Part shown: positions 1,932 through 50,262 of the stretch, in pieces | Numbering within the stretch: position 1 is the stretch's first letter | How the letters are laid out: every line of letters starts with the position of its first letter | Source: a virus | Taxonomy: Duplodnaviria; Heunggongvirae; Uroviricota; Caudoviricetes | Virus record (IMG/VR): IMGVR_UViG_2609459822_000013 | Span: 1-64,000 of that record | Length of the DNA: 64,000 bases | Reading direction: 5' to 3' (one strand) | Position numbers and translations under genes: made by a program | The notes under the pieces: generated by a model | Seen by the model: only the letters and a program-made list of their open reading frames with translations | Database searches by the model: none | Told to the model about the DNA's origin: nothing

Positions 1932-2518
1932 AATTCCAACCCCGTTTCACTGTTAAGTTTTTCGATTTCAAATACTGGTTTATCCGGTAGTAGACCTTTA
2001 TTTTTCCGGCATTCATTCAGGCGGCTATCAAAGTCAAACGCCAGATCATTAGCGTGACCGAATCGCCCAGGTTTAAACAGTGAGTAAAAGTTAACCCCGT
2101 GCCTATTTGGATCAACGCAAAGCGTTTCATCAATCACCATTAGGCGCAGAGTACGAGAAAGATAATTCCACGGTATTCCCGTTTCAGCGCTAATGTCGCG
2201 CATACGCTTTTTGACGCTGTAGTTACCAAATAACGACGCGACACGCTCACGACGTTCAGCGTATAACTGTTTAATACGATAACCCAGCAGACGGCGGCGG
2301 CGTCCAAAACATGTATACACGCGCTCGACGATACCGTTTTTTATTAAGTGTTTAATTGTCTCAGGCAGTAACCCGTCTTTGTCATATCCAGCCAATAACC
2401 CCGTTTTATTGCGTAACTGGTGCATTGTTGCGATGCCATCAAGTTCAAGGATATTGATAATTTTTGTTTCAAGTTCAGTGCTCATTTTTAGCCTCGTTTT
2501 AAACGCGATAACAGCCAC
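1928..2518 (-). CDS. hypothetical protein (196 aa), replication-module associated
   Basis: ORF directly downstream of the helicase gene in the same operon. Confidence 0.45.
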   Translation of the reverse strand: MAVIAFKTRLKMSTELETKIINILELDGIATMHQLRNKTGLLAGYDKDGLLPETIKHLIKNGIVERVYTCFGRRRRLLGYRIKQLYAERRERVASLFGNYSVKKRMRDISAETGIPWNYLSRTLRLMVIDETLCVDPNRHGVNFYSLFKPGRFGHANDLAFDFDSRLNECRKNKGLLPDKPVFEIEKLNSETGLEL

Positions 2519-2561
2519 CAGAAAGCGGTAAACTTTCCGGCAAGCTGTTTACTAATATTGA

Positions 2562-3971
2562 TTAAAAAGATGCGTTATTCTGATTGTTTCGTTGGTTGAA
2601 TCGGTTTGTACGATGATTCATGGACTGAATACATGCAGACGCTGCGCGGGCCTGGTCACAAGGGAGGATATTGCCGTTGTCATCAAACCGCTGGTAAACA
2701 GTGCCACTTTTCCCGTGACGGTTTTTAGATACAATTATTTCCATATATTCGCGTGCTACAGACTGTTCATCGTAGTAACCATCGCGGTACACCATGATGA
2801 TCCTGTCAGCGTCTTGCTCAAGGTTCCCGGAATCGCGAAGATCTGAATTGTTAGGGCGCTTATTCGGTCGTTCCTCAACGCGGCGTGACAGTTGGGCCAG
2901 CGCCAACACTGGTACGCGCAATTCTTTCGCCATCATCTTCAACGACCACGACAATTGCCCTACAGCGAGATCGTGACGTTCGGCCTTAGCCAGCTTCATT
3001 AACCCGATGTAGTCAATCATTACCATACCCAAGTTGGGGTGTTCCTGTTTCATCCGTTCCGTGGTGGCGCGTATTTCCTCAACCGTTAACTGCGACGCGT
3101 CAACAATCCACACATCAAGATTGGCAAGTGCGCTCATACCCTGGCCAACATGCGCCCACCCCTCATCATCAAGTTTTACCGGATTGCGCAGGCAGTCAGT
3201 TGATAAATTACCAGCGCCAGCGATAGCACGTTCAGTCATCTGATCGAGTGACATTTCAAGCGTAAACAGCAAAACGCCTACCCGCTGACCTTCGCCGCCA
3301 GGGTAAGGGCGTTCGGCAGCCTCGCGGGCAATTGCAAGCGCCAACGCAGATTTACCAGACCCAGGACGTCCGGCGAGAAGCACCAGATCAGTAGCGTTAA
3401 TGCCGCCTAACATTTCGTCGAGTGGGTCAATCCCTGTTTTGATGTTGTCAGAGTTCACGCCACACTCCATGCGTTTACTTAGCACTTCCGTGTATTCCTG
3501 GACAGCATCGCGCAACAGCACCGGGATAATCTGATCTTTTGTTACCTTTAATTTTGAATACCGGGAATCAAAATCTTTCATCGTCTCTTTGACGACCTCA
3601 AGTGTCCCAGTTTCCAGTTTGTAGCGCATATCGTCGATGAGTTCCAACATCTGCCGCCGCTGGTGCTCTTCACGTAGTAGCTGTGCATATCCCTTCAGGT
3701 TGGCAGCAGAAGGGCACGATCGCGCCGTTTGCATTAGCGGTACAAAGTTTTCATTACCAATCTCATCACCAACCAGTAACGCGTCGATAAGATTTCTGTT
3801 TCTGGCTTGCGCCCGGATAATTTCAAAAGCCCGCTTATATAGCGGAATAGTGAATACTTCAGGATCGAGCGTAGCAAGAACGTCTTGCGCGTTAGGTGTA
3901 AGCCCGCCTAACAGGAGTCCGCCTATCACAGCAGACTCTCGTTCTTGTCGCAGTGAGTTAACAGAATCCAT
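2562..3971 (-). CDS. DnaB-family replicative DNA helicase (P22 gene 12-like)
   Basis: 469 aa; Walker A LAGRPGSGKSALALAIA, DnaB C-terminal motifs (LAQLSR..E.R...R.PNNSDLRDSGNLEQDADRI). Confidence 0.85.
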   Translation of the reverse strand: MDSVNSLRQERESAVIGGLLLGGLTPNAQDVLATLDPEVFTIPLYKRAFEIIRAQARNRNLIDALLVGDEIGNENFVPLMQTARSCPSAANLKGYAQLLREEHQRRQMLELIDDMRYKLETGTLEVVKETMKDFDSRYSKLKVTKDQIIPVLLRDAVQEYTEVLSKRMECGVNSDNIKTGIDPLDEMLGGINATDLVLLAGRPGSGKSALALAIAREAAERPYPGGEGQRVGVLLFTLEMSLDQMTERAIAGAGNLSTDCLRNPVKLDDEGWAHVGQGMSALANLDVWIVDASQLTVEEIRATTERMKQEHPNLGMVMIDYIGLMKLAKAERHDLAVGQLSWSLKMMAKELRVPVLALAQLSRRVEERPNKRPNNSDLRDSGNLEQDADRIIMVYRDGYYDEQSVAREYMEIIVSKNRHGKSGTVYQRFDDNGNILPCDQARAASACIQSMNHRTNRFNQRNNQNNASF

Positions 3972-3987
3972 TATGGCATTACCTCCG

Positions 3988-4003
3988 GTTTACAAAATGG
4001 AAT
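3988..4003 (+). repeat. dispersed motif copy GTTTACAAAATGGAAT
   Basis: exact 16-mer; overlaps the last codons of the phosphoesterase gene, just upstream of the helicase RBS. Confidence 0.6.
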
Positions 4004-5108
4004 ATTCAGGGTAATAAACAAAGCGCCCGATTTCCCCGTGATCAGGACTGTAAATTATTCCCGCCGTCAGACGCCGCGACCGCCAGCCGCCATTCGTTGA
4101 ATAAGCGTCTTTGCCCGCTAACGTGCCGTGATACTCAACAACGCCTAACGATGATTCAATCAACCGTTGGTGGTGCCAGTGCCCGCAATGAGCATAAACC
4201 GCCGCAGACTTACCGAAATCTTCCCGCCAGTCAGAGACGCAGGCAGACAACAAATTTTCTGGTTTTTTGATGGTGTGTCCGTGGTGGTAAGCAAGGAATG
4301 TTTTGCCGTACTGTGTGTGGTGTACGATAGCAGGTGACACGTCAATCGTTACGCGCGGTTCATCTTCGTAAAAAGCCGCCAGCGCAGCACGTAGCCAAAT
4401 CATCCCCGACTGATCGTGATTACCTGATAATACCTGGATTTCGATTTCTTTGTGGTTTAACAACATCTTTCCTACAGCACGGCGGACTGACCGGATCGCC
4501 ACATAAACAAGTTTTGCGTAGCGTGAATCGCAATCAAGTACGTGATTGCTTGATGGCGTCACTGGCAACAGCCCATCAGTGTGAAGAACATCCCCACCGA
4601 GAAGCAATACAGCTTTTTCAGACATCGGCGCTGCGCCTACCGCGTAGTCAAAGAAATCATTTAGCACGCGTTCAGCGATCCCGGTGTCGTAGCTCTCACC
4701 GCATTCAGCTTTATGAGCAAGCGCCCCGATATGCAGATCGAATACCGGATAAAGGGCCAGGCTTTTTTGGAAATCAATTTCCGGCACTGGCACGGCCTCC
4801 GCGCGTGGCATGTCTTCCGTGAAAGCATCGCAAGCCGCTTGCATTAGCCTTTCCATTTCATCGCGATCACGGGCTGTTTTAATCCAGCGCATAATCACAT
4901 TGCCATCCTTATCGACGAGCAATGACTCACCATTGACGCCAAAGCCCGGCGCGCGACGCGTGGATATTAAACCGCGTTTCGCCAACCGTGCGCCCAGGCG
5001 TTCGACGTTGCGTTTTGCCATTCCATATTCTTCTGCTATTTGCTTGTAAGTTTTCCCCTTGTTGTACTCGGCGATCAGTTCCTCATCGCTGATCTTTCTT
5101 TGTGACAT
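3990..5108 (-). CDS. N-terminal HTH fused to calcineurin-like metallophosphoesterase
   Basis: 372 aa; HTH YKQIAEEYGMAKRNVERLGARLAKRG; phosphoesterase motifs GGDVLHTDG, SGNHDQSG, HHGH, GHWHH. Confidence 0.6.
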   Translation of the reverse strand: MSQRKISDEELIAEYNKGKTYKQIAEEYGMAKRNVERLGARLAKRGLISTRRAPGFGVNGESLLVDKDGNVIMRWIKTARDRDEMERLMQAACDAFTEDMPRAEAVPVPEIDFQKSLALYPVFDLHIGALAHKAECGESYDTGIAERVLNDFFDYAVGAAPMSEKAVLLLGGDVLHTDGLLPVTPSSNHVLDCDSRYAKLVYVAIRSVRRAVGKMLLNHKEIEIQVLSGNHDQSGMIWLRAALAAFYEDEPRVTIDVSPAIVHHTQYGKTFLAYHHGHTIKKPENLLSACVSDWREDFGKSAAVYAHCGHWHHQRLIESSLGVVEYHGTLAGKDAYSTNGGWRSRRLTAGIIYSPDHGEIGRFVYYPEYSIL

Positions 5109-5285
5109 AACGTTATTACCCCCGGTTCGCGGAATGAGTATTTATTCATAAATAACTAATTTTTATTAACATGGATTTCACGGTGTCAAAAAATGCCAGT
5201 AGGGTTAATCAACAACTTATGCAAATTGAAATAACCACTTAATGAATAACTAATCGTATACATTACGGTTTACAATTTGTATACA

Positions 5286-6341
5286 TTAGGATATAGCACA
5301 ACGGAAAAACTTGCACCCCAAATAATCTTCAATGCGTTTTTGTCTTATCGCATCGCTTTTTACTTGCCGTTTGTGATGTGACTCATCAATTTCTACAGCA
5401 ACGTTATTCACAGGATCGTAGCCATCAATAAAATACTTATTGCCAGCAACATCAACAGGATATTGCCTTATTAATTTAACTCCTTTTAGTTTTTCATACA
5501 TAGTTAAGCCAGCATGTTCATAACGCTTCCTAATCATATTTTTACAATTATCTCTCATTTCTGATAATTTCGAGTCGCACTCCTTTTTTATTTCTTCAAT
5601 TACATTTTTATCGCTTTTTAATTCAATAAAGTTTTCTATGTCGTTATAATTCCCGCATTCAAAATTATTATTAAGACCTTTATTTTCACCCCATGCATGA
5701 TACTTTTCTGCCATCTTATCGCTAATATATCTTTCATACCCATAATTTGTTTTAACTATAAAATATTCAATATTTAAATCAATGGTAAACTCATCATTAT
5801 TGAGGTGTTCAGTTAAAAACGCATCTGGATCTGCAATATCGCTTGAATGGAACAACCTTACCCATAGTTTTTCTATTGATACTCCGCGAGTGACGAACAA
5901 CCATTTTTTGTACTTTTCAGCATCTTCTTTTGACACATACACAGAACATCGCCCAGGAGTATCACTCGTTTCAACATAATTGTTACACCATAAAATATAA
6001 TTATAAGCATAAGGACTATCTTTTTTGGTGTTATTTGAATATTTATTAAAGATATCTTGCAAGTCAACTAATCCACAAGATTCAATAACTGGCTTAACCC
6101 ATTTTTCATTATATTCATAATGTCTATATTTACCAGGTGTAACGAATCTAATAAACGTTATGGGTGTGATATACACATCATCACCATCAACAATAAAATC
6201 CTTGTATTCCTCAAATCCGTAAAGATCAGAGTATTTAACAAATGATTTAAGTCTATCAATTTCAAGTTCAGAAACCAGATTATTAACAGACAGTAATTGC
6301 GTGTCCTTACAATTGAGTTTCATATGATAAGTAGCAATCAT
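5286..6341 (-). CDS. AT-rich accessory protein with C-terminal restriction-endonuclease-like (Vsr/DUF559-type) domain
   Basis: 351 aa from ATG with perfect AAGGAGG RBS; strongly AT-rich codon usage; C-terminus GNKYFIDGYD...VAVEIDESHHK...DAIRQKRIEDYLGCKFFR matches the Vsr/DUF559 pattern. Confidence 0.55.
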   Translation of the reverse strand: MIATYHMKLNCKDTQLLSVNNLVSELEIDRLKSFVKYSDLYGFEEYKDFIVDGDDVYITPITFIRFVTPGKYRHYEYNEKWVKPVIESCGLVDLQDIFNKYSNNTKKDSPYAYNYILWCNNYVETSDTPGRCSVYVSKEDAEKYKKWLFVTRGVSIEKLWVRLFHSSDIADPDAFLTEHLNNDEFTIDLNIEYFIVKTNYGYERYISDKMAEKYHAWGENKGLNNNFECGNYNDIENFIELKSDKNVIEEIKKECDSKLSEMRDNCKNMIRKRYEHAGLTMYEKLKGVKLIRQYPVDVAGNKYFIDGYDPVNNVAVEIDESHHKRQVKSDAIRQKRIEDYLGCKFFRCAIS

Positions 6342-6492
6342 ATATACCTCCTTTATTAATTTTCTATATAACGCCTCAGACGAGCTACAACGCAAAAATC
6401 CCACCGCGTAACCCGTTTACAGGTTGCAGTGTCTTATTGCGCTAGAGGCGCTATCAGGTGGCTAATTTTCGATTTACAGACTGGTAGGTAGG

Positions 6493-6594
6493 TTATGGAT
6501 TAACTAGCAGATACAAACCGCCGAACAAGGCGACGTTAACAGCGATAGCCATCGCGATCGCGAAAGCCAGGGCGAACATGCGTTTACCGTCCAT
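6493..6594 (-). CDS. small hydrophobic peptide (33 aa, MDGKRMFALAFAIAMAIAVNVALFGGLYLLVNP)
   Basis: short ORF with AGAGGA RBS; single predicted transmembrane helix; between replication initiator and nuclease-like gene. Confidence 0.3.
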   Translation of the reverse strand: MDGKRMFALAFAIAMAIAVNVALFGGLYLLVNP

Positions 6595-8339: not shown

Positions 8340-8987
8340 ATGAAAACAAAATGGTATGACTTAGCAAAGCAGCTCATGCGGGCGCAGGGCATGAGCCAGG
8401 ATTCACTAGCGGATCGCATGGGGATAACTAAAGGCGGTCTGTCACACTGGCTGAACGGTCGCCGCGAGCCAAATCTTGAAGATATTGCGCGGATTATGCG
8501 AGAGCTTGGTCGTCGGCAGTTCACTGTTACACATGATGGTATGGTCATTGATGATTCTGTTTCTAATACACTTCAGGCCGTGCCGCCGCGTGATTTAGGT
8601 AGTTACCCGGTTATTGACTGGAAGGACACAGTAAACAATATGGATGACGCAAGGCGTTCAGCATTACGACACGTTACGACTAGCGTTATTTGTTCAGATG
8701 ACAGTTACTGGCTGGTTGCCAAAGGTGAATCAATGAACGCGCCGCAGGGGTTGAGCATCCCGGCGGGGACGATGATACTTGTGGACCCGCACGCGCCAGC
8801 TATTGACGGCAAACTGGTTATAGCCCAGCTTGAGGAAGGGCAGATACCGACGTTTAAACAGTTGATTATTGATGGAGGTCAAAGGCTTTTACGTTCGCTC
8901 AATCCGCTGTATCCGCCAATCCCTATGAATCCAGAATCAAAAATTATAGGCGTGGTGGTTGATGCGAAGATCGTAAACCTGCCATAA
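8340..8987 (+). CDS. CI-type phage repressor (HTH + S24 LexA-like peptidase)
   Basis: 215 aa; N-terminal HTH (QDSLADRMGITKGGLSHWLNGRREP); C-terminal S24 motifs (AKGESMNAP...GTMILVDP). Confidence 0.85.
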   Translation: MKTKWYDLAKQLMRAQGMSQDSLADRMGITKGGLSHWLNGRREPNLEDIARIMRELGRRQFTVTHDGMVIDDSVSNTLQAVPPRDLGSYPVIDWKDTVNNMDDARRSALRHVTTSVICSDDSYWLVAKGESMNAPQGLSIPAGTMILVDPHAPAIDGKLVIAQLEEGQIPTFKQLIIDGGQRLLRSLNPLYPPIPMNPESKIIGVVVDAKIVNLP

Positions 8988-24694: not shown

Positions 24695-25152
24695 AGGCGT
24701 TAATTATCGCCGCTGTTGTTTGCATTATTGCCGGACTGACCGCCGTAACATGTTATTACCAGGGTGAGGCGGCAAGGTTACAGGAAGAAGTCACGGTAAC
24801 GAAAGGCGCACTGAAAACGGCAAGTAACACTATTCAGCAGATGAAGGAGCGAAACGCCGAACTGTCAAAACTTGATAAGAGGTATCACGATGAGATTAAA
24901 GCTATCAGATCTGACATTGCCGATCTGCGCACTGGCATTGATAACGGTACTATCCGGTTGCGCGTCAACGCAATACCCGTGCGAGTGTCCGACCCCGCCG
25001 CGACCGCCAGCCGCATTGATGGAGCCACCTGCGAGCTTGATGCCACTGCTAGACAATCTTATCTATCCCTCAGAGAACAACTAAAAGAGAAAGACGCACA
25101 GATCACTGGCCTACAGGACTACATCAAAACTCAGTGTTTACGCAAAGAATAG
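24664..25152 (+). CDS. Rz-like i-spanin
   Basis: N-terminal TM followed by coiled-coil; immediately after endolysin; start codon uncertain. Confidence 0.65.
24890..25084 (+). CDS. Rz1-like o-spanin lipoprotein embedded in Rz (+1 frame)
   Basis: signal peptide with lipobox LSGC, Pro-rich mature part; fully nested in Rz. Confidence 0.65.
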   Translation: MRLKLSDLTLPICALALITVLSGCASTQYPCECPTPPRPPAALMEPPASLMPLLDNLIYPSENN

Positions 25153-35708: not shown

Positions 35709-36185
35709 ATGTCTCAGACTTGCGAAAAAGGCACGTTTACAGGCCGTGACGTTGCTGTATTCTTCGCTATCGCTTGTCCAAATGCGAAGCCGGAAACTGG
35801 AGCGTACAAAGCGTTAGGCATGATGCGTGGTAAAACACTTTCCGTTGAATGGGAAACCGCTGACGCCACCGCCGATAAATCAGCCGATTACACGAAAGAA
35901 TCAATGGTTACTTACAAATCCGTTTCTTTCTCCGGCGACGGTGTGTCCCGCACTGAAGAAATCCATAATCAGAAAGCGCTGAAACGCCACGTAATTACGC
36001 CAGGTGAAACCACCGGATCACAACCTTATGTATGGCTGAAGATCGTTTCTCCTGTAGACGTAACTGAAGGCCCATTCCTTTGCACTTCCTTTAAAGAAGA
36101 AGATCCGCATGATGATGTTTCCACCTGGTCTATTGAGTGCGAAAGCGCTGGCAAGGTAACGGTAGGCGACGTTCCGCCAGCATAA
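35709..36185 (+). CDS. major tail (tube) protein
   Basis: 158 aa; position before tail assembly chaperone and tape measure. Confidence 0.5.
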   Translation: MSQTCEKGTFTGRDVAVFFAIACPNAKPETGAYKALGMMRGKTLSVEWETADATADKSADYTKESMVTYKSVSFSGDGVSRTEEIHNQKALKRHVITPGETTGSQPYVWLKIVSPVDVTEGPFLCTSFKEEDPHDDVSTWSIECESAGKVTVGDVPPA

Positions 36186-36202
36186 CAGCCAATATTAACA
36201 AT

Positions 36203-36228
36203 CGGGGCCATTTGGCCCCTTTTCTTTT
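36203..36228 (+). terminator. hairpin + T-run after major tail gene
   Basis: GGGGCCATTTGGCCCC followed by TTTTCTTTT. Confidence 0.45.
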
Positions 36229-36240
36229 AAGGTGAATACT

Positions 36241-36918
36241 ATGATCCATGTTCGTACAGGGCAATTTGCGGCTGTGGTGAACGGTAAGCGCTATGAGTTT
36301 AATCCTTGCTTTGCTGCGATGGCTAAAATCGGCAACGATAGTGAGCTTGTCGAATATTTCGCACTTATCCACGGCAGCAAATACCCTTCACGATTACCTA
36401 CAGATCCAGACCTCCGCAATCGCATTATGGCACGGTGTTATGGTGAGATAGTGCAAACGTCAATGCGCATCCTGAAATGTTGCTCAGACGACGAAACAGG
36501 CCAGTTATTGGGCAAATGTAGGTTTACTCCTTCTGGTAAATTGAGACTAAAACCCGGACTGATGCCTACAAGTGATGTTATCACGCTGGCGCAACATTGC
36601 ATGTACCACGGTTTAATTGGTGACGGGCCAGAAGAAGACGCCGGAGAGATCCGGGAAGGGGAATATAAGCCGACTTTTAACGTGCTGGAATTCGTTTATT
36701 CTGCCGTAGCTCACCTGGGATTATCTGAATCAGAAGCGTGGAATATGACAATGACCGGATATAGGGCCGCTGTACGCGCTAAAACGCCGCCAGAAGCAAG
36801 AAACAAACAAAAACGCCCAAATGTATTGCTGGATAAAAAGGCTTATGACGATGGAATGAATGGTGCTATGGAGATACTAAAAAGAATGAAAAATCGCGAG
36901 CAAGAAAAAGCCCGGTAG
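36241..36918 (+). CDS. tail assembly chaperone-like protein
   Basis: 226 aa upstream of tape measure region. Confidence 0.45.
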   Translation: MIHVRTGQFAAVVNGKRYEFNPCFAAMAKIGNDSELVEYFALIHGSKYPSRLPTDPDLRNRIMARCYGEIVQTSMRILKCCSDDETGQLLGKCRFTPSGKLRLKPGLMPTSDVITLAQHCMYHGLIGDGPEEDAGEIREGEYKPTFNVLEFVYSAVAHLGLSESEAWNMTMTGYRAAVRAKTPPEARNKQKRPNVLLDKKAYDDGMNGAMEILKRMKNREQEKAR

Positions 36919-36932
36919 ATCCGGGCGTTTTT
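36910..36932. terminator. bidirectional terminator
   Basis: GCCCGG-TAGAT-CCGGGC flanked by A-run and T-run. Confidence 0.55.
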
Positions 36933-36943
36933 GTTAAGTTCGC

Positions 36944-37264
36944 TTATGCTATTTTTTCGTAAAGCACATTCATCTGGGTGCGAATCACTGTTAATATATT
37001 GATTGCTGCGTTCTTATTAATGCGTTTATTCGCTACTATTTTTGTTTTCCCATCAATAACAACCAGATCTGCGTGCAATACATGGTTGAAGTTGACAATG
37101 TAATAATACTGTTTATCGCCAACATGTTGAACATATGCACCATTTAGATTTCCTTTATACCCACAATCACGCTCTGCGACACCGAAGTCAAATTCGCGGT
37201 TCATCTTGCGATTATATGCTACTTGTTTATGTTCCCATTTTCTCATCCATTCATCGCGTTTCAT
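36944..37264 (-). CDS. moron: hypothetical protein (106 aa)
   Basis: reverse-strand ORF inside tail module. Confidence 0.5.
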   Translation of the reverse strand: MKRDEWMRKWEHKQVAYNRKMNREFDFGVAERDCGYKGNLNGAYVQHVGDKQYYYIVNFNHVLHADLVVIDGKTKIVANKRINKNAAINILTVIRTQMNVLYEKIA

Positions 37265-37273
37265 GTTTCACCC

Positions 37274-37933
37274 TTAATTCCAGTTGCAAGCGTTTTTCAC
37301 TTTGTCGATGTGGTTATAAAGACCATCAATGTTAAACACTGCTTTCTCAATGTCGCCAGCTTCCGGCACTGCTTCAATGATAAATTGTTTTTCGTTAACC
37401 AGTTTTTTAATCATTGGGATGGCTTTTTTGCCGTTCCATAATCCAAGAGCTTTATAGTTAGTTGACCGACTCCATTCAGTAGCTACAGCTTTGTGATCGC
37501 CGATCCGGTAGTTAATATAAGTAGTGTCCCCAGCGTCAGTTACATGGTTTGACCATGCTACGAACATTTTTGTTTTATTACCCTGGCAAGCTATTGTTAA
37601 TACAGGTTTGTTTTCATCCCGTGCTTTCAGTGTAGGGAAAGCATCAAGACTTCCGCTGAAATGTTCTGCTTTCACGAAAAGGAACACGTTTTTTGTGTCC
37701 TGCATATCATCTTTTCTTTCGACCACAAGCCACTGTTTACCAGCTTTTTCTTTTGCTAACTGTGCCTCATATGCGGCTTGTTTTGCTTGTTGTTCTGCAA
37801 GCCATTTAGCATTTTTCTCTGCTAATGCTTGTTGCTCTTGATTGGTCACTATAGGCGCTTTTTCATTATCCTCATTGCAACCAACCAGACCCAATACCGC
37901 CGCAATCATTGCCACTTTTGCTAACCGTTTCAT
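37274..37933 (-). CDS. moron: lipoprotein (219 aa)
   Basis: signal peptide with lipobox LVGC; reverse strand within tail module. Confidence 0.6.
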   Translation of the reverse strand: MKRLAKVAMIAAVLGLVGCNEDNEKAPIVTNQEQQALAEKNAKWLAEQQAKQAAYEAQLAKEKAGKQWLVVERKDDMQDTKNVFLFVKAEHFSGSLDAFPTLKARDENKPVLTIACQGNKTKMFVAWSNHVTDAGDTTYINYRIGDHKAVATEWSRSTNYKALGLWNGKKAIPMIKKLVNEKQFIIEAVPEAGDIEKAVFNIDGLYNHIDKVKNACNWN

Positions 37934-37980
37934 AACCCACCACGCTAACTTGATTTACTGACCATTCCCTTTAGCTTCCT

Positions 37981-37994
37981 TATACAAAATGGAG
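37981..37994 (+). repeat. dispersed motif copy TATACAAAATGGAG
   Basis: inverted-repeat partner at 38009-38020. Confidence 0.55.
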
Positions 37995-38008
37995 TCGTTG
38001 AAGTAAAG

Positions 38009-38020
38009 CCATTTTGTATA
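38009..38020 (-). repeat. dispersed motif copy (reverse) TTATACAAAATGG
   Basis: forms palindrome TATACAAAATGG-N14-CCATTTTGTATA. Confidence 0.55.
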
Positions 38021-38060
38021 AAATAGATACACAGATCACATTTTTGCATGAGGTTAAATC

Positions 38061-40397
38061 ATGGATACCAGTGTAGGTACAATTTATTACGAAGTTGATG
38101 CGAAAACTAGTCAACTTCTCGTTGCACAACGACAGGCAGACCAGGCCTTTGGGCGTATAGAGCGCGGCGCAAAACAGGCTGACCGCCAGGTAAACACCCT
38201 GAAAACATCCATCAAGGCACTGACCAGGGTTATCCATTTGCTAATTGCTGCGGAGGCCGTGCGTCAATTCATGGATATGGCGGAGCAAGCAAAAATGCTT
38301 CGCGTAAAAATCAAAATGCTTACGGGCGATGCGGAGTCCGCCGGACGGGTTTTTGATGGCCTAAAAGCAATATCAAAAGAAACAGGCCAAAGCATGAAGG
38401 ATACCGGGGATCTGTGGCAAGGCTTAGCTATCTCACTGAAGAACACGTCCGCCACTGAAGGGCAATTGCTTAACCTGGTAGGTACGATTCAGAAAATGGG
38501 GGCGTTGGGCGGCGCGTCAGCTGAGCAGATGTCAAACTCAATGCGTCAATTCCGTCAGTCTATCGACGGTGGCGTGTTGCGTGCTGAAGAATTCAACAGC
38601 CTGTTAGAAAACACCCCGACCATCGTACAGACAATGGCACGCCAGATGGGGTTATCAATGGGCCAATTCCGCGCCGAAATGCTGGACGGTAAGATCACGG
38701 CAGAAAGGATGGTTAACGCAATCCAGGCGGCTACGCAGGAAACAAACGAGAAGTTTGCGCAGTTGCCGCGCACATCCGGCATGGCCCTGAATGAGCTTAA
38801 AGTCGAGGTTATGGGACTTGTTGAGCAATTGGATGATCTTTTCGGTGTATCCGATACGGTTGTTGCTGGTATCGATCTTGTAACGAAAGGTGTTAAGGCT
38901 TTAGGTGAAGGCGCTGATTTCGCTAAAACCTGCTTTAACACCCTGAAGACGGCTGGTGGCGAATTCATCGACATGTTTGAAGATGTCAGAATCAAGGCTG
39001 GCGAGGTAGCCGAGAAGATCATCGCAATGGTGACGCCAATCAAGGCACTAATGGATGCCTACAAATGGATGAAGGAGGTCGTAGGAGAGCAAACCGACGA
39101 ATATAACAGCAACTACGAGAAGAAATACGGTAAGACCGTTGGCAAGGTCATGCAACTACAGGATGATCTGACCGCAGCAATCCAGGCTACAGAAGAAGCA
39201 AGGAAAAATGAACAGAATGCCGCCAATGACGGAGCGATTACCGGATTCGAAAAGCCAGTAGACAAACCGAAAAAACAGAAAAAAGAGAAGAAATCTGAAG
39301 CTGATCGTCTTGGCGATAAAGGTATAAGCGTTTCTGACCAGTACAACAAAGACGCCGCCGCTATGCGCAAAGCGTTAGAGAGCGGCAAGGCCATTGATGC
39401 TGCATTCGCCCAGGGTAAAATCACTCTCCTTGAGTACCGCGCCGCGCAAAAAGGGATAGGTAAGGAACTAAAGGAAGAATTAGCACAAATTCCGGTAGAG
39501 GAATTGCGCGACAAATGGGAGCAAATAGTAAGCCCGATGGATCAGCTAAAGGGCGAAGTAGACCCTATTCAGCAGGTTCAAAATGAATGGGCCGTCCGTA
39601 AGCAAATGCTTATCGACCTGGGCGTGACGGAAGCGCAACAGAAACAGGAACTGTTAGCCTATGAGCAACAGATCCGCGATCTGAAGTGGGAGCAATGGCA
39701 GGCGCAAAGCGACACAAACAGCCTTATCGGTGATTGCGTTAATGGCCTTAAAGGTGGTATGAGCAATGCACTTGTTGGCCTGTTAAATGGTACTCAATCA
39801 TTGAGTGATGTTTTTGCTAACTTAGGCAGCAATATCCTCGGGAATATCGGTAACAGGCTTTCAGACATAGCTGCAAACTGGATAGCAGATCAGATCATGA
39901 TGGAAACGCAAAGCAAAGCGACTCAGGCAAGTACCACGGCGGGCGCGGTAGCGGCGCAAGGCCAGATTGCTGCGGCGGCGGCCCCGGCGGCGGCGGCAAC
40001 AGCGGCGTCAACTGGCGGCGCATGGGCGGCGGCTGGTTCTGCGGCACTCACTGCGATCATGTCGCTGGCTACGTCAATTTTTGGCGGCGGTCGCTTTAAT
40101 GGTGGTAGCGTCATTGGTGGCAATATGTACCGTGTAGGGGAACACAACAGGCCGGAGCTATTCCAGACATCTAACGGAAATCAATATATGATCCCTGGCG
40201 AGAATGGCAGGGTTATTCCTGGTCGTGACATTGGCGGTGGCATTAGTATGCCTGTCAATATCAACATTCAGACCACAAACGGATTTAGCGACGAGGACAG
40301 CCGCAGACTTGAGCAGACAATGGAACGTGTAGCAATGAAAATGATAACAAGGGAATCACAACGACCAGGCGGAATATTGCAACCTCGCCGCAAATAA
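38061..40397 (+). CDS. tail tape measure protein
   Basis: 778 aa, coiled-coil rich, Ala/Gly-rich segment, position before M-L-K-I-J. Confidence 0.8.
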   Translation: MDTSVGTIYYEVDAKTSQLLVAQRQADQAFGRIERGAKQADRQVNTLKTSIKALTRVIHLLIAAEAVRQFMDMAEQAKMLRVKIKMLTGDAESAGRVFDGLKAISKETGQSMKDTGDLWQGLAISLKNTSATEGQLLNLVGTIQKMGALGGASAEQMSNSMRQFRQSIDGGVLRAEEFNSLLENTPTIVQTMARQMGLSMGQFRAEMLDGKITAERMVNAIQAATQETNEKFAQLPRTSGMALNELKVEVMGLVEQLDDLFGVSDTVVAGIDLVTKGVKALGEGADFAKTCFNTLKTAGGEFIDMFEDVRIKAGEVAEKIIAMVTPIKALMDAYKWMKEVVGEQTDEYNSNYEKKYGKTVGKVMQLQDDLTAAIQATEEARKNEQNAANDGAITGFEKPVDKPKKQKKEKKSEADRLGDKGISVSDQYNKDAAAMRKALESGKAIDAAFAQGKITLLEYRAAQKGIGKELKEELAQIPVEELRDKWEQIVSPMDQLKGEVDPIQQVQNEWAVRKQMLIDLGVTEAQQKQELLAYEQQIRDLKWEQWQAQSDTNSLIGDCVNGLKGGMSNALVGLLNGTQSLSDVFANLGSNILGNIGNRLSDIAANWIADQIMMETQSKATQASTTAGAVAAQGQIAAAAAPAAAATAASTGGAWAAAGSAALTAIMSLATSIFGGGRFNGGSVIGGNMYRVGEHNRPELFQTSNGNQYMIPGENGRVIPGRDIGGGISMPVNINIQTTNGFSDEDSRRLEQTMERVAMKMITRESQRPGGILQPRRK

Positions 40398-40422: not shown

Positions 40423-40436
40423 CTATCTTTATTCAA

Positions 40437-40608
40437 TTTCATCATTTTTAAATTCGCCGTTTGCATAAAGCTGTAATGCGCTTATCAGTTCGTCAGCTTG
40501 CTTTTTGTCTATTACAATCATCTCGCAGTCGCTAACGTTCCATAATCTTCCATCATCTTCAACACTAAGATCAATCCTTCTGCATTCTTCAGTCTCATGA
40601 ATAATCAT
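40437..40608 (-). CDS. moron: small acidic protein (57 aa)
   Basis: below ORF-track cutoff; MIIHETEECRRIDLSVEDDGRLWNV... Confidence 0.35.
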
Positions 40609-40936
40609 TATAAACCTTCATTATGTTATTAATTTTAGTGAATAAATTTACTCAAATCTTGTATACCCTCTTTCAATTTTCCCTCCGTGTACACTTCTGG
40701 CAAATACCGCGTCAGTATACCTAAAAAATGGGCATGTATATGTATCACCTTTACTATCCATCCATTTTAGCACCCATGCCATACGTTTTACATTGCTTTT
40801 ATTTGCCGGGTTTTTCATTTTATTTTCCTCCGCAAATTACAATCTTTCGTTTCTTGCTATATAGCTGCGAGAAAACATTACCAACCAAATATTCCAGATC
40901 TCCCTCCAGGTGAATTTATCGTCCTCCATACCCACC

Positions 40937-41191
40937 TCACTTATGGCAACCGCGAACGCCAGACAATTCATTGAATTTATGGTGTTCAACAATCACCCAC
41001 TCCTTCAGATCCTGGCTATAGACTCGCCAGTCTAAATTGGCGCGGAAGGCGTAGCCGTAACCGTCTTTCAATTTTTTGGGTGACGCATTCTTGTTTAAAA
41101 ACGCGTTCAAAAGTTCCTTTGCTTTTTTGACTGCATGCCCCGGCGCGTTTTTCTGTGCTTTCAGATTTTTGTCAATCGCTACCAGTTTCAT
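40937..41191 (-). CDS. moron: RelE/ParE-superfamily-like toxin candidate
   Basis: 84 aa; pattern KKLK...FRANLDWRVYSQ...WVIVEHHK resembles RelE/ParE. Confidence 0.4.
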   Translation of the reverse strand: MKLVAIDKNLKAQKNAPGHAVKKAKELLNAFLNKNASPKKLKDGYGYAFRANLDWRVYSQDLKEWVIVEHHKFNELSGVRGCHK

Positions 41192-41208
41192 AACTCACCC
41201 CATCATCC

Positions 41209-41364
41209 TTAGTTAAGTGCCTTCAGGAAGAAGTCCCGGTATTCATCTTCTTTTGCATTCATCATGAATTGACCGTATTTGAATGCGTCGTCGAAACCCT
41301 TAACGATTGCTATTTCCACTTGTTCGAATGCGTTGTTTAGCATTACCACTACATAGCGTTTCAT
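41209..41364 (-). CDS. moron: small protein upstream of toxin-like gene (possible antitoxin)
   Basis: 51 aa from ATG with perfect AAGGAGG RBS; 17 bp upstream of the toxin-like gene. Confidence 0.35.
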   Translation of the reverse strand: MKRYVVVMLNNAFEQVEIAIVKGFDDAFKYGQFMMNAKEDEYRDFFLKALN

Positions 41365-41435
41365 TTTGGGCCTCCTTCGTTGGTACTGCTTTTCTTCTTG
41401 CTTTCTGTATACATCTTGTTGCGAACTATGTGAAG

Positions 41436-41448
41436 CCATTTTGTAAAC
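41436..41448 (-). repeat. dispersed motif copy (reverse) GTTTACAAAATGG
   Basis: 13-mer exact. Confidence 0.6.
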
Positions 41449-41531: not shown

Positions 41532-41885
41532 ATGCCGGAAGCTTTCAGATGGACGCCGCAAAGAAGCTACAGCGTGACCAGGGAGCCAAACGTATCTGTC
41601 ATTAAACTTGGTGATGGGTATGAACAGCGCCAGGCGAAAGGGATCAACACATTGCTTGATAGCTACACCCTGGTTTTTAAAGGCAGTAGCGCAGGATGCG
41701 GTGATGGTGGGAACGTGGCGATCCAGGCAGAAGCATTCTTGAGGGCGCGCGGCGCTAGCGAGGCTTTTTACTGGTCGCCGTCTATGGATGGCGTGCAAAG
41801 GCTTTTTGTTTGCCGTAGCTGGAGTATGACAAAGGACGGGCCTGTATACACGCTAAACGCAACGTTTGAGCAAGTTATTAATTAG
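41532..41885 (+). CDS. minor tail protein M
   Basis: 117 aa; matches recalled lambda gpM motifs (FRW, GDGYxQR, ...FEQVIN C-terminus). Confidence 0.8.
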   Translation: MPEAFRWTPQRSYSVTREPNVSVIKLGDGYEQRQAKGINTLLDSYTLVFKGSSAGCGDGGNVAIQAEAFLRARGASEAFYWSPSMDGVQRLFVCRSWSMTKDGPVYTLNATFEQVIN

Positions 41886-50016: not shown

Positions 50017-50262
50017 TTATTTTTTACACCCATCATTTACACCAGAAAAATGGATAGGTAAATTACATTCACTGTCAATAATTTTACCTTGTAGTTGTTT
50101 TTCTTTCCATGAGTCAGTATTGAAATAACTCGAACGTTGGTTATCAAGGCCAGTATCACCATATTGAGCAGTGCCAGCATCACTCTTATCTGTCGAATTT
50201 ACAGAAGCAAAAGCACCAAAAGACAGAGCTGATAAGATGCAAGCAACAATTAGTTTTTTCAT
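50017..50262 (-). CDS. moron: small secreted protein (81 aa precursor, 2 Cys)
   Basis: signal peptide MKKLIVACILSALSFGAFA; AAGGTG RBS; reverse strand between J and tail fibre. Confidence 0.55.
   Translation of the reverse strand: MKKLIVACILSALSFGAFASVNSTDKSDAGTAQYGDTGLDNQRSSYFNTDSWKEKQLQGKIIDSECNLPIHFSGVNDGCKK

Follow-up and report, generated by a model that had tools for sequence, protein, structure and literature searches.

A tail-module moron cassette of an mEpimmI-type Escherichia coli prophage encodes a predicted VasI/TagO-domain lipoprotein

The DNA analyzed here is a stretch of 64,000 nucleotides from a Caudoviricetes virus (IMG/VR record IMGVR_UViG_2609459822_000013, positions 1 to 64,000; hereafter the window), and the element in question is a pair of reverse-strand genes at 36944-37933, within its tail module. 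We found that this region is a moron cassette in an mEpimmI Escherichia coli prophage, lying in a slot whose borders are a DUF6246 gene and the tape measure gene. The cassette is variable, is separately terminated, and is independent both of the J tail tip and of the 106-amino-acid (aa) gene that accompanies its first gene. The product of the first gene is a 219 aa protein in which, according to sequence and structure predictions, a lipid anchor and a helix of about 33 residues would tether a VasI/TagO beta-sandwich in the periplasm. These are known kinds and not a new class, namely a tail-module moron and a PF11319 protein that is already annotated in RefSeq. The reading that we put forward, with a probability of roughly 45%, is that the cassette is expressed in the lysogen and that its predicted outer-membrane-tethered lipoprotein blocks incoming phages after adsorption.

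Results

The window falls within the "mEpimmI" group, temperate siphophages of E. coli that resemble mEp021 (PMC11893012). The moron was 99.4% identical to its counterpart in the prophage of E. coli M1/5, for which RefSeq labels the lipoprotein "type VI secretion system-associated protein TagO". The DUF6246 genes of the window and M1/5 were just 96.1% identical; the window is, therefore, a relative of the M1/5 prophage and not the same prophage. An earlier note on this DNA had described two reverse-strand open reading frames that form a moron-like, separately terminated insert in the tail module, bracketed by a tail assembly chaperone gene and the tape measure gene. Both reading frames were present on the minus strand where the note had placed them, and the description of the insert was borne out. 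The bracket held in part. The right-hand gene is a tape measure gene by its TMP_3 domain, whereas the left-hand gene encodes a DUF6246 protein, which is a putative tail assembly chaperone by position only, lying between the tail tube gene directly upstream and the tape measure gene. Positions of these and all other features are given in Table 1.

The DUF6246 flank was kept in all relatives, whatever the cargo of the slot. The insert was AT-richer than its surroundings, with a GC content of 0.368 and 0.409 compared to 0.463 and 0.503 for the flanks. It consists of variable DNA between conserved flanks, possesses its own terminator, and deviates in base composition, all of which belong to Hendrix's definition of a moron; that definition also includes a promoter of its own, for which a candidate is described below, and expression from the repressed prophage. 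The lipoprotein gene and the 106 aa gene are separated by 9 nt, and a Shine-Dalgarno-like sequence precedes each of them.

A census of the slot was taken across related loci, of which 20 carry the lipoprotein. The lipoprotein gene was followed by the 106 aa gene in 8 loci, was combined with an unrelated 124 aa lipoprotein in 10, and stood alone in 2. Another 4 loci had a 160 aa secreted protein together with the 106 aa and 124 aa proteins, without VasI, and 3 (mEp013, mEp021, and GN05505) had other cargo. At least 6 cargo combinations were found between the conserved flanks, and the VasI lipoprotein was the commonest cargo by record count. When complete E. coli genome records having this type of DUF6246 gene were counted, 16 of 32 carried the VasI lipoprotein, although two pairs among the 16 appear to be duplicate records.

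The first cargo gene begins MKRL(A/I)K(A/V)A in the VasI lipoprotein, the 160 aa secreted protein, and gp63 of mEp021 (138 aa), but beyond this shared start the mature parts of the three are unrelated. The exception is the 59 aa membrane protein of mEp013, which begins MKSLINK. Cassettes seem to be exchanged inside the signal-peptide coding region. Because the signal-peptide starts are shared and the upstream region is conserved, the slot appears to be an expression site for interchangeable exported proteins. The 124 aa alternative cargo possesses a lipobox (LTGC) and a sub-threshold BamE/SmpA_OmlA-like match (E 3e-4); it is found after the VasI gene in the 10 loci that have both and is also present in mEp013.

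Both ends of the cassette carry candidate transcription signals. The bidirectional terminator that the earlier note had proposed is a hairpin with T-runs on both strands, which folds at -18.9 kcal/mol and is far more stable than shuffled controls (z = -4.55). This hairpin is predicted to terminate the DUF6246 and moron transcripts alike. In mEp013 and mEp021, annotated terminators predicted by ARNold and other means stand at the same place. At the other end, the note had described an inverted pair of a dispersed motif, and a perfect 13-bp inverted repeat with the core TACAAAATGG was found there, in the 127-bp region between the divergent lipoprotein and tape measure genes. The repeat is a copy pair of the dispersed motif TACAAAATGG, and the upstream region that contains it was kept across all cargo variants of the slot. 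No RNA family from Rfam was found in 36000-38600.

A candidate sigma-70 promoter for the moron was read from this upstream region, with a -35 of TTTACT (38007-38002), a spacer of 17 nt, and a -10 of TATAAG (37984-37979). The -10 falls inside the repeat's left arm. Across six relatives that differ in cargo, the -10 region was invariant and the -35 was partly conserved. A consensus promoter scan did not call this candidate because its -10 lacks the final T.

The motif TACAAAATGG has 9 exact copies in the window, which is far above chance, and when up to one mismatch was allowed there were 25 matches compared to 7.5 +/- 2.8 in shuffled sequences. Its copies are mostly intergenic and at coding-strand switches. 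Two of them (8257 and 9100) flank a CI-like repressor gene with HTH_3 and Peptidase_S24 domains, and at each junction that was checked (38 kb, 41.4 kb, and 50.4 kb) the motif marks the passage from a reverse-strand insert to the forward tail gene that follows. It may serve as an operator for the repressor or as part of a promoter. When fitted as a -35 or a -10 element, it matched neither consistently across its copies.

The 219 aa protein begins with a signal peptide and lipobox, consisting of MKRLAKVAMIAAVLGLVG followed by the lipobox cysteine, with L-V-G-C at residues 16-19 and Asn at +2. The sequence MKRLAKVAMIAAVLGLVGC agrees with the lipobox rule [LVI][ASTVI][GAS]C and is kept in five clade members; the LVGC lipobox named in the earlier note is, therefore, both present and conserved. 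A lipid-anchored outer-membrane location is predicted on account of the Asn at +2 (the +2 rule).

This lipoprotein has known relatives. It matched PF11319 (VasI; EvfG / VC_A0118) with an E value of 1.9e-16 and 60.7 bits (cut-off 26.5), and it matched phrog_1848, a PHROG without an assigned function, at 1.7e-57; its RefSeq name is TagO. The PF11319 match spans residues 55-218 on profile positions 25-184. However, the score against TIGR03360, the NCBIfam equivalog for VasI, was 47.7 bits and far under the cut-off of 124.2. By these profile scores, the 219 aa protein is a member of the PF11319 family, yet not an orthologue of the protein from type VI secretion systems (T6SS).

An exhaustive HMMER search yielded 1,251 representative relatives, of which just five were close. 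Residues C116, T121, R143, C216, and W218 were invariant in a 101-sequence alignment, and W68, S157, G164, W166, and P190 were conserved in at least 90% of the sequences. The C116/C216 pair fits a disulfide-bonded periplasmic domain. The AlphaFold2 model had a predicted local distance difference test (pLDDT) score of 89.5, and the predicted layout is a signal peptide with lipobox (1-19) and a linker, followed by a long helix (31-63) and then, at about residues 66-218, the VasI domain as a beta-sandwich. The Lys/Ala/Glu/Gln-rich stretch of the protein was modeled as this one long helix of about 33 residues.

VasI/TagO (VCA0118; PF11319, formerly DUF3121; TIGR03360) and the window protein share a domain family, the invariant Cys pair, and the W/R/GLW motifs, and both are exported envelope proteins. 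Compared to T6SS VasI and to the other family members, proteins of the E. coli phage clade have the lipid anchor and the helix of about 33 residues in place of the usual N-terminal Cys...RLxCYD segment, and an extra insertion of about 18 residues; relatives of the 219 aa protein carry ...RLACYD after the signal peptide. The dN/dS (ratio of nonsynonymous to synonymous substitution rates) of the gene was 0.096 against a 77%-identical homologue, which indicates a real gene under strong purifying selection.

A Foldseek search of the PDB with the 219 aa model returned nothing significant, and a sequence search of the PDB returned no match for the 219 aa or the 106 aa protein. The structural neighbors, IalB (Bartonella invasion-associated locus B, PDB 3dtd) and 8z5n_A, are both envelope proteins of the periplasm, and neither comes with a biochemical activity that would carry over to the window protein; they have 7-9% sequence identity to the window protein and no Pfam-level relation to it. 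The 8z5n_A entry was deposited as a component of a sodium-driven polar flagellar motor, and we take it to be MotY. A reading of the 219 aa protein as a spanin was also considered, given a weak match to phrog_812 (E 0.09), and was rejected; the match is due to the helical linker, and the window has a separate Rz1-like lipoprotein gene.

Published work locates VasI in T6SS clusters; in Vibrio, the gene lies between vasH and tssA. The window lipoprotein gene, in contrast, lies in a prophage tail module and not in a T6SS cluster, and the relatives that were sampled had prophage or housekeeping contexts (two had housekeeping neighborhoods), with none in T6SS loci. The sampling seed was narrow and biased to a phage-like subclade, with only 6 genome loci, and no family-wide proportion is claimed. 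In three cases, namely Brucella phage BiPBO1, a Mu-like prophage, and another prophage, the VasI-domain gene lay immediately downstream of a CI/S24 repressor gene and in the same orientation. A prophage in a Hoeflea metagenome-assembled genome has an operon of a CI-like repressor, an HSDR_N-domain protein (type I restriction R N-terminal-like, nuclease-like), and a VasI-domain protein, which looks like a small defense operon expressed in the lysogen. Two unrelated, GC-rich loci had opposite-strand, canonical non-lipoprotein VasI genes with the RLACYD motif near tape measure genes. In one, the VasI gene lies between a chaperone gene of the gene transfer agent (GTA) type (PF11836) and a TMP_3 tape measure gene; in the other, a Paracoccus siganidrum prophage, its place is immediately upstream of the genes for chaperone and tape measure. 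The arrangement is the one seen in the window. Sites downstream of repressors and adjacent to tape measure genes are typically positions of genes expressed in the lysogen. Further relatives lay at an edge of P2-like prophages, and phages of Pasteurella, Klebsiella, and Labrenzia carried others.

The 106 aa protein formed three clusters among 5.8 billion proteins, all from the same phage slot. It had no match in Pfam, PHROGs, NCBIfam, or PADLOC, and a tblastn search of 50,697 GenBank phage records was empty. Its structure model was weak, and the fold search was uninformative. The dN/dS of its gene was 0.26-0.34 against a 72%-identical homologue, the most distant copy, which indicates that this is a real gene, and it is probably co-transcribed with the lipoprotein gene. 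The two genes have different histories. Between the window and the related locus L008, the lipoprotein genes had a dS of 1.5, with synonymous sites saturated, whereas the adjacent 106 aa genes had a dS of 0.067, with 19 nonsynonymous versus 4 synonymous changes. This discordance argues for a recombination joint between them, in the 9-nt spacer. Relaxed or positive selection is possibly acting on the 106 aa gene. The earlier note had called the 106 aa protein a partner of the lipoprotein; however, the genes assort independently, and each was found without the other among related loci. The 106 aa gene is an independent cargo module and not a dedicated partner.

Independence from the receptor-binding end of the tail was also observed. 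GN05505 has a J tip that is 100% identical to that of the window over the last 250 residues and has the same J-adjacent 81 aa protein, but its slot holds a gp63-type protein instead of the VasI lipoprotein. Conversely, GF66.2 has a lipoprotein gene 98.5% identical to that of the window and an unrelated J tip, and RM9245 has a J-adjacent small lipoprotein plus the VasI lipoprotein in one prophage. The lipoprotein is, therefore, not matched to the receptor specificity of its own phage.

The 81 aa protein is encoded immediately downstream of the J gene. It is secreted, of the signal peptidase I type (AFA/SVN), and without a Pfam match. In 11 E. coli genomes, one of which lacks the VasI lipoprotein, it was inherited together with the J tip. 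It is a better candidate for receptor-matched exclusion than the VasI lipoprotein.

Between the tape measure gene and a minor tail gene, the window has another insert on the reverse strand. It encodes a ParE-like toxin-domain protein and several small open reading frames without family matches, and no obvious antitoxin candidate was present in this insert.

Table 1. Positions of the cassette, its surroundings, and related features (window numbering unless a related locus, L, is named)
Feature	Position	Strand	Remarks
219 aa VasI/TagO-domain lipoprotein gene	37274-37933	minus	predicted lipoprotein
Gene of the 106 aa orphan protein, predicted to be cytoplasmic	36944-37264	minus	without signal peptide
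DUF6246 gene, left flank of slot	36232-36918	plus	PF19759 2.7e-54; phrog_791
Tape measure gene, right flank of slot	38061-40397	plus	PF20155 TMP_3 1.2e-48; phrog_1538 7.9e-154
Bidirectional intrinsic terminator	36910-36926	both	GC-rich hairpin, T-run on each side
Perfect 13-bp inverted repeat	37980-38021		TTATACAAAATGG (37980-37992), 16-nt spacer, CCATTTTGTATAA (38009-38021)
Candidate sigma-70 promoter of moron	37979-38007	minus	inferred, read from the sequence
Exact copies of TACAAAATGG	3991, 8257, 9100, 16570, 16635(-), 37983, 38009(-), 41436(-), 50411		
CI-like repressor gene	8340-8987		HTH_3 + Peptidase_S24
Rz1-like lipoprotein gene	24890-25084		
Second reverse-strand insert	40429-41439	minus	
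ParE-like toxin-domain gene	40937-41191		within second insert
Minor tail gene	41532-41885		
81 aa secreted protein gene	50017-50262	minus	downstream of J gene
First cargo genes with shared signal-peptide start	window 37874-37933; L004 4482-4964; L009 4763-5179	minus (window)	
124 aa lipoprotein copies	L003 4632-5006; L004 5345-5719; L001 3730-4104		alternative cargo
Lipoprotein and 106 aa genes of L008	L008 1780-2769		
Region with VasI gene between GTA-type chaperone and tape measure genes	L033 3744-7097		VasI gene on opposite strand
Region with VasI gene upstream of chaperone and tape measure genes	L031 (= L048) 2370-6513		Paracoccus siganidrum prophage; VasI gene on opposite strand
Repressor, HSDR_N, and VasI operon	L045 3829-6399		Hoeflea prophage

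Discussion

The closest precedent for this cassette by position is gene 15 of phage HK97, for which the term "moron" was coined and whose prophage-expressed product blocks genome injection without touching the receptor (PMC3594210). Gene 15 occupies the same slot, with the tail chaperone position on one side and the tape measure gene on the other. Bacterial homologues of gp15 exist outside phages (PMC3594210), which also holds for the window lipoprotein. Both genes are autonomous add-ons that encode an envelope protein. However, gp15 is a small inner-membrane YebO-like protein, whereas the window encodes a 219 aa predicted outer-membrane-type VasI lipoprotein on the opposite strand; exclusion is a demonstrated activity of gp15 and a proposed one of the window lipoprotein.

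A precedent by fold is SDIC4B (Serratia defence island candidate 4), to which HHpred assigns a VasI-like fold and which, as reported in a 2024 preprint, alone gave a modest 10- to 200-fold protection against several coliphages; it is not in T6SS clusters (bioRxiv 10.1101/2024.01.28.577318). The SDIC4B sequence in the preprint supplement has a signal peptide. Like the window lipoprotein, then, SDIC4B is signal-peptide-bearing, presumably periplasmic, and VasI-like in fold by its authors' assignment. SDIC4B, of about 157 aa, differs in being a non-lipoprotein that signal peptidase I cleaves, and in that it is found in chromosomal islands with BrxR, whereas the window protein is encoded in a prophage tail module. 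The neighbors of the window lipoprotein gene are tail genes, with neither BrxR nor SDIC4A among them.

We propose that, in the lysogen, the cassette would form a transcription unit of its own, starting in the conserved region between the divergent genes and stopping at the bidirectional terminator. The lipoprotein would hang from the outer membrane on a helix of about 5 nm and would alter the envelope of the lysogen in such a way that phages arriving at the cell are stopped once they have adsorbed; the most plausible way would be to obstruct the tail tip or the tape measure conduit on its way across the periplasm. The prophage's own outer-membrane receptor would not be masked.

Several points weigh against this proposal. 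Phage resistance is a proposed activity of this protein and would be a first for any bona fide PF11319 member, and the genetics available for a true VasI, all from VCA0118, link the family with how efficiently the T6SS kills and not with phages (PMC3166118). The SDIC4B precedent depends on the fold that its authors assigned, since comparison with the window protein gave nothing significant by sequence or by profile (hhalign probability 0.3%, BLASTP E 0.39), and SDIC4B itself has no Pfam match. The PADLOC defense models matched neither of the two cassette proteins, with a library that is older than SDIC4. The adjacency to the tape measure gene may reflect a mere general insertion hotspot. Lastly, the -10 of the candidate promoter is non-canonical (TATAAG), and this promoter overlaps a motif with further copies on either side of the repressor gene, so that the cassette could be repressor-controlled rather than constitutive.

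Other explanations were weighed against post-adsorption exclusion. The earlier note had likened the lipoprotein to Cor and Llp, which would mean that it masks or inactivates the outer-membrane receptor of the phage's own tail tip. Cor (phi80/N15/mEp167), Llp (T5), and Lpp021/Lpp010 are likewise outer-membrane lipoproteins encoded by prophages or phages in or near tail genes, and Lpp021 and Lpp010, from the same mEpimmI group, each exclude phages using the same receptor (PMC11893012). A predicted outer-membrane lipoprotein within a tail module would suit such a role, and the only other lipobox gene in the prophage is the Rz1-like spanin gene. However, the proteins of the Cor, Llp, and Lpp types are about 60-80 aa and are encoded next to, and matched with, the gene for the receptor-binding protein, whereas the window protein is larger, belongs to another family, and is J-independent. 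The tested Lpp genes are J-adjacent and encode about 72 aa (Lpp021 is 72 aa and its gene adjoins J), and tblastn of Lpp021 found no match to the 219 aa gene or to anything in the slot. The 219 aa protein had no Cor- or Llp-relevant match in Pfam or PHROGs. The note had itself regarded the lipoprotein as unrelated to Cor and Llp and much larger, and this was correct, as it has no similarity to Lpp021 and about three times the size of these proteins. Six accessions from VasI-carrying genomes were not listed in the text or supplements of the mEpimmI paper, which covers four lipoprotein types (PMC11893012). The assortment of the VasI gene independently of the J tip in GN05505, GF66.2, and RM9245 unties it from the receptor-binding tail tip and argues against masking of the Cor/Llp kind, and the gene co-inherited with the J tip here is the one for the 81 aa secreted protein. 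Receptor masking is, in our judgment, improbable; exclusion in a wider sense, acting after adsorption, stays plausible and is our leading hypothesis. For the lipoprotein, a role at the envelope as an anti-phage or a fitness factor is likelier than one in receptor blocking.

A lysogenic conversion related to the T6SS would have the extra VasI/TagO either boost T6SS killing by the host or shield the lysogen's envelope from T6SS attack. The lipoprotein belongs by its profile match to the true PF11319 family, a VasI gene is included in E. coli T6SS clusters (PMC6033998), and in V. cholerae full killing, of amoebae as well as of E. coli, requires VCA0118, an exported protein that is dispensable for secretion of Hcp and VgrG (PMC3166118). 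Nevertheless, the score of 47.7 bits against an equivalog cut-off of 124.2, the missing N-terminal Cys/RLxCYD segment with a profile match that begins at position 25, and nearest relatives in prophages or housekeeping contexts instead of T6SS loci all speak against it, as does the listing of TagO function as unknown in a 2026 review; we consider a T6SS role unlikely. Another envelope fitness or virulence factor, of the Bor/Lom or Bor/IalB kind, would act in serum resistance, adhesion or invasion, or envelope homeostasis, with no role in conflict with phages or the T6SS. We regard this as doubtful, given that the protein has no evident eukaryote-interaction feature and that the family recurs right after repressors, at tape measure junctions, and once beside a nuclease-like defense-type gene, a placement more typical of exclusion or defense cargo. 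It is highly improbable that the lipoprotein and the 106 aa protein are a functional pair, such as a toxin with its immunity protein, an abortive infection system, or a lipoprotein with a cytoplasmic regulator. The genes are on the same strand, 9 nt apart with no terminator in between, and occur together in 8 related loci; but either gene occurs without the other (RM9245 and L026 have the lipoprotein alone), their divergence between the window and L008 is discordant, and the predicted compartments of the two proteins differ.

Since 2009-2011, VasI/TagO has figured as an accessory protein of the T6SS without a known function, and the 2026 review still lists it in that way. The locus described here shows a true member of the VasI/TagO family, as judged by its profile match, outside any T6SS. 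As cargo it is frequent and strongly conserved, occurring in about half of the prophages of mEpimmI type that complete E. coli genomes contain, and it occupies the archetypal moron site beside the tape measure gene; relatives lie in repressor operons of unrelated prophages. A broader and, to us, rather unlikely idea is that PF11319 is not a T6SS part but a general periplasmic "anti-puncture" module, which prophages would use, from repressor operons and from morons adjacent to the tape measure gene, against genome delivery across the periplasm by the tails of superinfecting phages. It is similarly a long shot that T6SS loci would, under that idea, carry VasI for an analogous role in envelope protection or conduit handling. 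If the anti-puncture idea were true, the coliphage version would be the first genetically tractable stand-alone true member of the family, and testing it would assign a function to TagO/VasI. If it had no phenotype, the gene would be one more lysogenic-conversion gene without a characterized role. Because the mEp phages plate on K-12, the locus is a tractable entry point to VasI/TagO function, and it bears on whether post-adsorption exclusion can act from the outer-membrane side of the periplasm.

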